A stretch of DNA of 63,161 nt, filler included, from Octopus bimaculoides (taxonomy: Eukaryota): the NCBI RefSeq assembly GCF_001194135.2. It is 6 parts of 5 records of this genome, joined end to end, with 100 filler letters (N's around TTAATTAATTAA, not from the genome) between each part and the next. Parts side by side here need not be neighbours in the genome. Positions count along the whole stretch, not along the records: positions 40,442 to 46,705 come from NC_068983.1; positions 46,806 to 55,922 come from NC_068982.1; 4 more parts are not named here. One strand, given 5' to 3'. Under the pieces are notes generated by a model, which was not told where the DNA came from, searched no databases, and worked only from the letters and a program-made list of their open reading frames with translations. The position numbers and the translations under genes are program-made. Of this stretch, positions 45,425 to 47,151 are shown piece after piece. Numbering within the stretch: position 1 is the first letter of the stretch; every line of letters starts with the position of its first letter.

Positions 45425-45715
45425 TAGTTGTGTTTAAATGCACTGGGGTCGATGTAATCGACTTAATCTTTTTCTCTGTCCTTGTTTGTCCCCTCTGTGT
45501 GTAGCCCCTTGTGGGCAGTAAAGAAATAAGAAACGTTAGCACACCGGGCGAAATGCTTAGCGGTATTTCGTCTGTCTTTACATTCTGAGTTCCAATTCCG
45601 CTGAAGTCGACTTTGCCTTTCATCCTTTCGGGATCGATAAATTAAGTACCAGTTGCGTACTTGGGTCGATGTAATCGACTGGCTCCCTTTCCCAAAATTT
45701 CGGGCCTTGTGCCTN
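45425..45715 (+). mobile_element. Two family B segments in tandem (tail-2 3' end followed by a tail-1 copy)
   Basis: GGGGTCGATGTAATCGACTTAATC...GGCAGTAAAGAAATAAG directly precedes AAACGTTAGCACACCGGGCG...CGACTGGCTCCCTTTCCCAAAATTTCGGGCCTTGTGCCT. Confidence 0.8.
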
Positions 45716-45967
45716 NNNNNNNNNNNNNNNNNNNNNNNNNNNNNNNNNNNNNNNNNNNNNNNNNNNNNNNNNNNNNNNNNNNNNNNNNNNNNNNNNNNNN
45801 NNNNNNNNNNNNNNNNNNNNNNNNNNNNNNNNNNNNNNNNNNNNNNNNNNNNNNNNNNNNNNNNNNNNNNNNNNNNNNNNNNNNNNNNNNNNNNNNNNNN
45901 NNNNNNNNNNNNNNNNNNNNNNNNNNNNNNNNNNNNNNNNNNNNNNNNNNNNNNNNNNNNNNNNNNA

Positions 45968-47105
45968 TTAATAGTTATCGCCAAGCCAACATGGCAGTCC
46001 CAAAATTAGGACGAAAGCTGCCGTGAATTAGCTCCAAGAAGCCATCGCCTCTAGCTAGCTATGTGACACACGACACCTGTGTCCTTTATAACCTTCGAAC
46101 AGGGGAGGTCAGCAGTGTCCCCCTGCTGGTTTGGCATCTACAGACTAGTTTCAGGCTGTTGCCACTTGTCAATGCAGAGCAGCCAAGCCTCGGCCAGGCG
46201 GCGCTGCTGACTATCTGTTCGAAGGTTATTTATCTAATTTCAGTGGAATCTATCCACTGGTTTCAGAAATAGAGTTATTAATATTTCTAAGTCTATAACT
46301 CTATTTCTGAAAACCAGTGGATAGATTCCACTGAAATTAGATAAATAACCTTCGAACAGATAGTCAGCAGCGCCGCCTGGCTGAGGCTTGGCTGCTCTGC
46401 ATTGACAAGTGGCAACACCCTGAAACTAGTCTGCAGATGCCAAACCAGCAGGGGCACACTGCTGACCTCCCCTGTTCGAAGGTTATAAAGGACACAGGTT
46501 TCGTGTGTCACATAGCTAGCTAGAGGCGATGGCTTCTTGGAGCTAATTCACGGCAGCTTTCGTCCTAATTTTGGGACTGCCATGTTGGCTTGGCGATAAC
46601 TATTAATTTCCAGTACCGCTGCCGTAGTCTCCTTTAGAGAGACTTAGAAATATTAATAACTATATATATATATATATATATATATGATTGACCGTTGACT
46701 GAACANNNNNNNNNNNNNNNNNNNNNNNNNNNNNNNNNNNNNNNNNNNNTTAATTAATTAANNNNNNNNNNNNNNNNNNNNNNNNNNNNNNNNNNNNNNN
46801 NNNNNTATCTGCTCGAAGGTTATTTATCTAATTTCAGTGGAATCTATCCACTGGTTTTCAGAAATAGAGTTATTAATATTTCTAAGTCTCTCTAAAGGAG
46901 ACTACGGCAGCGGTACTGGAAATTAATAGTTATCGCCAAGCCAACATGGCAGTCCCAAAATTAGGACGAAAGCTGCCGTGAATTAGCTCCAAGAAGCCAT
47001 CGCCTCTAGCTAGCTATGTGACACACGAAACCTGTGTCCTTTATAACCTTCGAACAGGGGAGGTCAGCAGTGTCCCCCTGTTGGTTTGGCATCTGCAGAC
47101 TAGAC
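45968..47105. repeat. Three young copies of a ~361 bp structured unit (+ 45968-46293, - 46294-46660, + 46805-47105)
   Basis: Direct sequence comparison shows ~6 differences between copies 1 and 2 over ~320 bp. The period of 361 is measured between the GTTA tetramers at minus-strand 46660 and 46299. Confidence 0.9.
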
Positions 47106-47106
47106 T

Positions 47107-47151
<45 letters not shown>

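Follow-up and report, generated by a model that had tools for sequence, protein, structure and literature searches.

Penelope-like elements (PLEs) leave insertions that are truncated at the 5′ end, occur as partial tandems, come with an inverted copy and carry a tail at one end (passages of PMC8557442 and PMC3846280). In the in vitro experiments described in parts of PMC11167929, synthesis starts at two internal sites whose spacing equals the tail, both strands of AT-rich DNA are cut and extended, and the start site does not differ between the two strands. Hammerhead cleavage is unnecessary for insertion in that system, and the main substrate is unprocessed RNA. In the sections cited, the PLE papers leave open how these elements form their tails and inverted repeats. 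A PLE origin has been proposed for the metazoan non-LTR retrozymes (sections of PMC7229834 and bioRxiv 10.64898/2026.07.22.740005), and the passages concerned base the proposed mobilisation of animal retrozymes by PLEs mainly on shared ribozymes and co-occurrence. As for the ribozyme itself, a U3-A8 pair in the hammerhead core is a natural covariation that is active in vitro (part of PMC3088659); a schistosome PLE carries it, and a short palindromic helix III is a dimer design (both from passages of PMC4209133).

We analysed a stretch of 63,161 nt of joined parts of the Octopus bimaculoides genome (GCF_001194135.2), referred to here as the window. Positions 45967-46660 are one inverted insertion (genomic G000:C3:47842347-47843040) of a dispersed, non-coding unit of 361 bp. 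Unit positions u1-u361 are numbered on the strand used in the original prediction (F); R is its complement and equals the plus strand of 46295-46660. The features are the following.

45967..46294, plus strand: left arm of the inverted insertion; the top strand is the putative cDNA strand
46295..46660, plus strand: right arm, made up of one unit and 5 further nt (366 nt), with the putative RNA on the plus strand
46396..46437, plus strand: type I hammerhead motif of the right arm, activity predicted
46137..46178, minus strand: hammerhead motif of the left arm, core at 46172-46166, helix II with two changes
46345..46486, plus strand: long rod hairpin with the hammerhead at its apex, from the fold
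46488..46628, plus strand: conserved multi-stem domain of six helices with site A inside a loop, from cross-lineage structure
46603..46607, plus strand: site A (unit positions 54-58), inner of the two fixed ends; the right arm reads through it
46608..46665, plus strand: the tail, about 57 nt from site A to site B, from the end census
46661..46685, no strand: (TA)n target tract, from the sequence
46706..46805, no strand: non-genomic filler at a joint between parts of the stretch
46806..47108, plus strand: separate copy from the unrelated locus G000:C2:160532710, unit positions 299 to 235 across the unit junction

From site A (unit position 54, beside an N gap) the left arm runs over the unit junction at 46273/46274 as far as unit position 21, and the fixed end of the right arm (site B) merges into the (TA)n tract. 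Both plus copies read through the end-to-start junction seamlessly, as had been claimed. Of the three copies in the original prediction, two make up the insertion at 45967-46660; the third (46806-47103) lies past the joint at an unrelated locus, ends in a 5-nt duplication followed by (GA)n and is cut on its left side by an assembly gap. The inverted junction, formerly placed at 46293/46294, lies at 46294/46295. No contig among those listed from four runs bridges this junction, so that it has no independent confirmation; an inverted arrangement like that of the window locus recurs at dozens of loci. Pieces of an abundant repeat, which we take to be a SINE-like family, lie at 45440-45715, where a 33-nt motif is repeated at 45442 and 45659.

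The description of the unit as a structured sequence of 361 bp was borne out, since it folds far beyond shuffled controls on both strands (z -8.6 and -8.1). So was its description as a young, non-coding mobile unit: the young copies are ∼98% identical with private substitutions at 0.56% per base, and the majority sequence of the young family has no open reading frame longer than 28 amino acids. Across the lineage majorities, with monomers of 350-366 nt, the longest ATG frame spans 12-66 amino acids. The GC content of the unit is 45-47%. The copy number of the 361-nt family in the genome is in the hundreds to thousands; a first-look DNA search returned 2035 candidates, a figure that is not a copy number. 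A 28-mer of the unit has 646 exact matches; for the 34-nt hammerhead motif, exact copies number at least 372. The controls gave 0 in both cases. Among the runs listed, at least half of the unit words are present in at least 20 runs with five organism labels, and no RNA holder of these words is on record. No long tandem arrays were seen; the longest segments are 503-675 nt, and gaps in the assembly may hide longer ones. We found no published description of the family, which may stand unnamed in repeat libraries (Repbase, Dfam, the library of PMC13282606). The portions of PMC13282606 consulted do not mention ribozymes; its library and the supplements of the 2026 preprint could hold the family.

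A genome-wide search for copies and ends, as had been suggested, revealed many copies with fixed sites at one end and a scattered other end. The end census covered 89 loci and 110 segments from the first 100 exact matches listed, with one duplicate dropped and close pairs merged; five long copies were left out, which gives a slight bias against long copies. The 78 gap-free F-left ends fell at site B (u350-3) in 54 cases and at site A (u52-60) in 20, with 4 elsewhere; hence 74/78 were at one of two sites ∼57 nt apart. On the F-right side, 75 of the 81 gap-free ends were scattered off the fixed sites. The 74 fixed ends adjoin TA in 59 cases, GA in 11 and other sequence in 4. Truncation at the 5′ end and partial tandems are present among the census segments, the unit junction is crossed seamlessly by 12/110 young segments, and two 3′ ends with a tail between them were found in all four lineages described below. 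A fixed 3′ end and a truncated 5′ end indicate that F would correspond to the cDNA and R to the RNA. The GTTA terminal repeat read from the minus copy did not hold: this copy has its fixed site in (TA)n and comprises one unit plus 5 nt, other copies end anywhere, and unit-length copies with GTTA ends are not enriched. What was read as GTTA ends is read-through of 4-5 bases. As a separate observation, 12/48 cDNAs end in an 18-nt window at unit positions 264-281, the highest count of 13 windows except the last; synthesis may pause there, within the rod.

Inverted pairs combine a site A arm with a site B arm. Altogether, 21 clean A/B pairs and no A/A pair were obtained. When young and old loci were aligned permissively, both outer ends were gap-free in 18/35 pairs, which comprised 9 clean A/B, 0 A/A, 0 B/B and 9 with an end mapped elsewhere. 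With stricter mapping, the older three lineages gave 19 clean A/B and 0 A/A among 39 pairs, drawn as best-hit rather than unbiased samples; 2 were ambiguous near-B/B pairs (L260 and L330), and the remainder were gapped or mapped elsewhere. The young family contributed 2 clean A/B pairs. The two arms carry the same diagnostic haplotype in 9/9 informative young pairs (12 examined), and these haplotypes occur in 0-48% of other copies. Either one source per insertion or later conversion would account for this. The end pattern and the A/B pairing match the published PLE tail signature, and we therefore infer that the family is, with little doubt, a hammerhead element mobilised by PLEs. PLEs, which were absent from the options first considered, explain end positions, target and inversion alike.

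The family comprises four lineages, 56-90% identical, with monomers of ∼350-366 nt and the same two ends. The young lineage shares 90% identity with the older subfamily, for which a 21-mer gave 325 exact matches. Lineage 3 (2154 candidates) and lineage 4 (1362 candidates) show 56-60% identity with the young lineage and with one another. The same helices are present in all four, one of them reduced in lineage 4. Among 51 distinct rows from three lineages, 92% of the cells pair and 24/33 pairs show double changes, compared with 0/500 shuffles and 35-44% for slid pairs; the alignment was fitted to the model, and such an alignment leans toward its own structure. RNAalifold on a plain MAFFT alignment was weakened by misregistration between lineages. 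In hand-picked helices, 5/5 non-Watson-Crick positions are G-U on R and none on F, and lineage 4 agrees. G-U on R only, together with the compensatory changes, favours the plus strand of 46295-46660 as the RNA. The six-helix domain (46488-46628) would be a candidate binding scaffold for the reverse transcriptase. Within an internal loop region, an 8-nt palindrome is kept in all lineages (window 46517-46524 and equivalents: CTAGCTAG; CCAGCTGG in lineages 3 and 4); that this palindrome serves as an RNA dimerisation site is a speculative possibility.

A type I hammerhead motif lies on R at the apex of the rod (46396-46437). It consists of helix I TCTGCA/TGCAGA, the core TTGACAA (46402-46408, U3-A8; UUGACAA in RNA), a helix II with a private G>T, GAAA and the palindromic helix III ACTAGT, and the motif predicts cleavage at 46431^46432, after GTC. 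In the young copies TTGACAA is kept in 89/90, GAAA in 88/90 and GTC in 90/90; helix III is ACTAGT in 61 and a form longer by 5 nt in 27. U3-A8 was found in 14/17 old copies, and a C3-G8 core in 19/24 copies of lineage 3 and 18/25 of lineage 4, where helix III is an exact or nearly exact palindrome. Covariation across lineages is seen in helix I and in the 3-8 pair; differing registers between the lineages restricted the count to these and two pairs of helix II. A descriptor written post hoc, once the motif had been seen, matches R in three of the four majorities (that of lineage 4 fails the strict form) and none of 2000 shuffles per lineage. Predicted folding gives one helix III pair in the 361-nt monomer and four in the 366-nt variant. 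The 5-nt insertion in helix III is carried by 37/70, 25/47 and 27/42 RNA reads versus 27/90 genomic copies.

The motif escapes the usual searches. The absence of CUGANGA was correctly noted and holds for the young family; the U3-A8 motif on the plus strand at 46396-46437 was missed. Rfam models, run at permissive E-values, returned only chance matches of hairpin type and missed the hammerhead in every lineage searched. Crude patterns for the hairpin, twister, twister-sister, pistol and hatchet motifs, as generally known, gave nothing convincing. The two stem-GAAA motifs previously likened to hammerhead halves are the wrong ones and lie on the other strand. Cross-lineage comparison rejects them: older lineages differ in the base that follows GGACG (GAAT; GGT), and the second motif amounts to a simple GACACA/TGTGTC hairpin. 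The broader proposal of a retrozyme-like RNA with a non-canonical ribozyme is supported by the conserved U3-A8 motif.

Evidence on the form of the RNA came from the genomic copies and from sequencing runs. The predicted cleavage site is passed by 59/62 segments, and cDNAs that pass this site and cross the junction without scars point to a template that was either circular or an uncleaved multimer. We sampled ∼6% of each of three raw RNA-seq runs and obtained 230-345 unit reads in ∼12 million each. Both orientations were about equal, 33-46% of the reads continued into unlike sequence, and depth fell along the unit as genomic truncation does. None of the three runs showed a clear start or end at the cleavage site; the sole internal start cluster (6/21) lies near that site, but beside a 5-nt indel. 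These runs look like host read-through, which argues against an abundant free circle in those libraries. In run X19, the only matching contig is 396 nt long at depth 75 and carries the variant bases of the 366-nt haplotype. Its length is 366 + 30, and by arithmetic the positions fit a 30-nt terminal overlap. The contig thus fits a closed cycle; tandem or collapsed DNA would give the same contig. The conservation of unit length and ribozyme, and the precedent of known retrozymes (passages of PMC7229834), also speak indirectly for a circular RNA intermediate, which is plausible.

The rod (46345-46486) is also a cluster of haplotype variants and of likely A-to-I editing sites. RNA reads on R had 12/4, 10/6 and 12/4 places with A>G versus T>C, several of them absent from the X15 contigs, and the A>G excess is consistent with editing of the R rod. 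Neither strand is favoured overall among the private mutations of the genomic copies (28 T>C versus 21 A>G, p=0.25); a post hoc editing-type excess within the rod (21 versus 8 young, 15 versus 8 old) is a hint only.

On balance we favour a non-LTR retrozyme whose RNA would cut itself, be circularised and be copied by a PLE, probably of the Nematis clade, into (TA)n. Read-through transcripts of more-than-unit copies would carry the hammerhead. Two hammerheads would cleave as a dimer, because the 6-nt palindromic helix III cannot fold alone; the longer helix III of the 366-nt variant could act alone. Monomers might then be ligated into circles. Both strands of the (TA)n target would be cut and extended from internal RNA sites 57 nt apart, one strand from B and the other from A, a step visible as a pattern in the genome for which a PLE enzyme would be responsible. 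Synthesis would stop at scattered places, pass the predicted cleavage site and be able to circle more than once, as is seen in the genomic copies. Finally, two cDNAs would be joined at variable ends to give inverted pairs like 45967-46660, or a single arm would be kept.

The strongest alternative, which we regard as possible but rather unlikely, is a non-autonomous PLE copied from uncleaved linear multimers transcribed from tandem loci, with a real hammerhead that acts elsewhere or weakly and no circle. It explains all end patterns equally well, passage of the cleavage site fits uncleaved RNA too, the RNA-seq resembles read-through, and unprocessed RNA is the main PLE substrate in the relevant part of PMC11167929. 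However, no multi-unit source array was found in this gapped assembly, lineages that share no more than 56-60% identity have retained both the unit length and the hammerhead, and the X19 contig fits a closed cycle. A more specific form of the circular reading, offered tentatively, is that a long-lived lineage of viroid-sized circular RNA parasitises a telomerase-related PLE enzyme through a conserved structural scaffold, which would set the start sites, and not through shared sequence. Two start sites 57 nt apart would be used, one per target strand, on one source RNA, with rolling-circle copying, and the young core would have switched to U3-A8 as in the candidate helper. If so, PLE insertion could be dissected on the unit as a minimal substrate of 361 nt, and the unit would show directly that animal retrozymes use the PLE machinery to move.

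The candidate helper was sought among the PLEs of this genome. The search for partners used BLAST, nhmmer and two covariance models and yielded only further non-autonomous lineages; three strong matches were separate family members near PLEs, and in ∼100 PLE loci per screen, a sample of the PLEs of the genome, no 3′ end of an autonomous PLE matched the unit by sequence or model. For Naiad or Hydra helpers, four motifs of the unit are absent from the supplement of PMC8557442, in which line breaks could hide matches; cephalopod Naiads are long inactive according to a passage of that paper. A Nematis-like PLE (loci L232, L235, L237 and L249; clade from the endonuclease alignment in the supplement of PMC8557442) has a tail of ∼60 nt and is flanked mostly by (TA)n. 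Of its inverted pairs whose 3′ ends both fall within the query, 6/6 have a single tailed arm, and 17/17 pattern matches show a U3-A8 core. In a Poseidon-like PLE the tail spans ∼26 nt, 13/13 unique pairs have a single tailed arm, the targets are mostly not (TA)n and the core is C3-G8. We lean slightly towards the Nematis-like clade as the best candidate helper, because tail length, (TA)n target and U3-A8 core are alike; against it stand the C3-G8 cores of lineages 3 and 4 and the lack of any sequence link found.

Several further observations were made on these PLEs. The Nematis-like 3′ end (L341-L370; L249:5380-5600) has a minimal hammerhead-like motif with a U3-A8 core and an AAATTT palindrome. 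Other PLE loci carry U3-A8 hammerhead-like motifs with a CATG palindrome (L098:2227 and L109:1313); the variant thus also occurs outside the Nematis-like family. A CTGATGA...GAAA hammerhead-like motif just past an old-subfamily copy (L232:6351-6380) is probably from another PLE. The Poseidon-like PLE (L372-L400) is young, 96-98% identical, with 1768 candidates. Upstream of the hammerhead, its repeat contains a segment resembling a tRNA, with motifs like the A and B boxes of Pol III promoters (for example L373, ∼1410-1680); in L379 this segment follows the apparent end of a PLE ORF, and ARAGORN calls no tRNA. The family is possibly a PLE or a PLE-SINE with a Pol III promoter.

The remaining explanations fare much worse. 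In rolling-circle elements one end is expected to be fixed and the other variable, with read-through into tandems and without a clear duplication of the target; a Helitron or Replitron has a single fixed origin end. A Helitron- or Replitron-like DNA element with a fixed origin, variable termination and folding of single-stranded DNA would thus produce the one fixed and one variable end, the read-through and the lack of a clear target duplication seen here; G-T wobble would suit single-stranded DNA, and the private mutations show no strand bias. We consider it very unlikely, since there are two fixed ends, which inverted insertions combine as A/B, two PLE families of this genome show this pattern too, and the hammerhead motif covaries. 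DIRS and Ngaro elements have both ends fixed, split or inverted terminal repeats and a tyrosine recombinase. A non-autonomous derivative, integrated as a DNA circle by such a recombinase, was among the origins first suggested, and the few letters shared by the two ends of one copy would fit, as would the junction-spanning copies. It is unsupported, because a single end is fixed and the other is randomly truncated (75/81 scattered, without enrichment of GTTA-ended unit-length copies); the end census largely refutes it, no split or internal complementary repeats were found, and we hold it to be highly improbable. Hardly more credible is a misassembly, or a conventional satellite with random breakpoints: N gaps adjoin many copies (32/110 left ends) and the junction is unbridged among the listed contigs, but the breakpoints are non-random, the copies are dispersed across many contigs, the window arms differ at 6/303 positions and the architecture is repeated in four lineages. 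A LINE-mobilised SINE with twin-priming inversions would share the fixed 3′ end, the 5′ truncation and the microsatellite-rich flanks, and is equally implausible, given that no Pol III A/B box was matched on either strand of the four lineage majorities, no tRNA was called in loci L002, L289 and L314, the unit junction is read through seamlessly, the arms pair A/B, and the outer end of the inverted piece, which varies in twin priming, is fixed here.

We conclude that the element is real, young and abundant, and is likely a novel sort of non-LTR retrozyme, with a PLE insertion signature. Here a retrozyme-type unit shows the full PLE insertion signature in four lineages, and tail length, target and core variant point to one PLE clade. 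For PLE tails and inverted repeats, two predictions open to testing follow, one arm per site and arms of the same haplotype, and the small RNA offers a substrate ready for use. Searches restricted to CUGANGA or to Rfam miss a motif of such abundance in this genome.

Compared with PLEs as described in the passages cited (PMC8557442, PMC3846280 and PMC11167929), the unit shares the two 3′ ends, the 5′ truncation, the partial tandems, the inverted 5′-truncated copy with a tail at one end only, the AT-rich or (TA)n targets and a hammerhead upstream of the two ends. It differs in having no ORF, a tail of ∼57 nt versus 30-40 in PLEs, and no sequence match to an autonomous partner among the PLE loci screened. 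The non-autonomous Chlamys elements such as MRC1 (part of PMC8557442) are likewise non-autonomous PLEs with head-to-tail insertions; unlike the unit, they generally resemble the 3′ end of their autonomous family, and most Chlamys have no canonical hammerhead. With the non-LTR retrozymes, as far as the sections of PMC7229834 and bioRxiv 10.64898/2026.07.22.740005 describe them, the unit has in common a protein-free length of ∼350 nt, one type I hammerhead, a short palindromic helix III, strong structure and head-to-tail read-through. Its copies are mostly dispersed, truncated and inverted, in contrast to their tandem arrays; its GC content is 45-47%, and the U3-A8 core of the young lineages escapes CUGANGA searches. 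It also bears the PLE tail signature, whereas the portion of the bioRxiv text concerned makes no mention of a tail. The Nematis-like PLE of this genome resembles the unit in all of tail length, (TA)n target, one tailed arm per pair and U3-A8 core.
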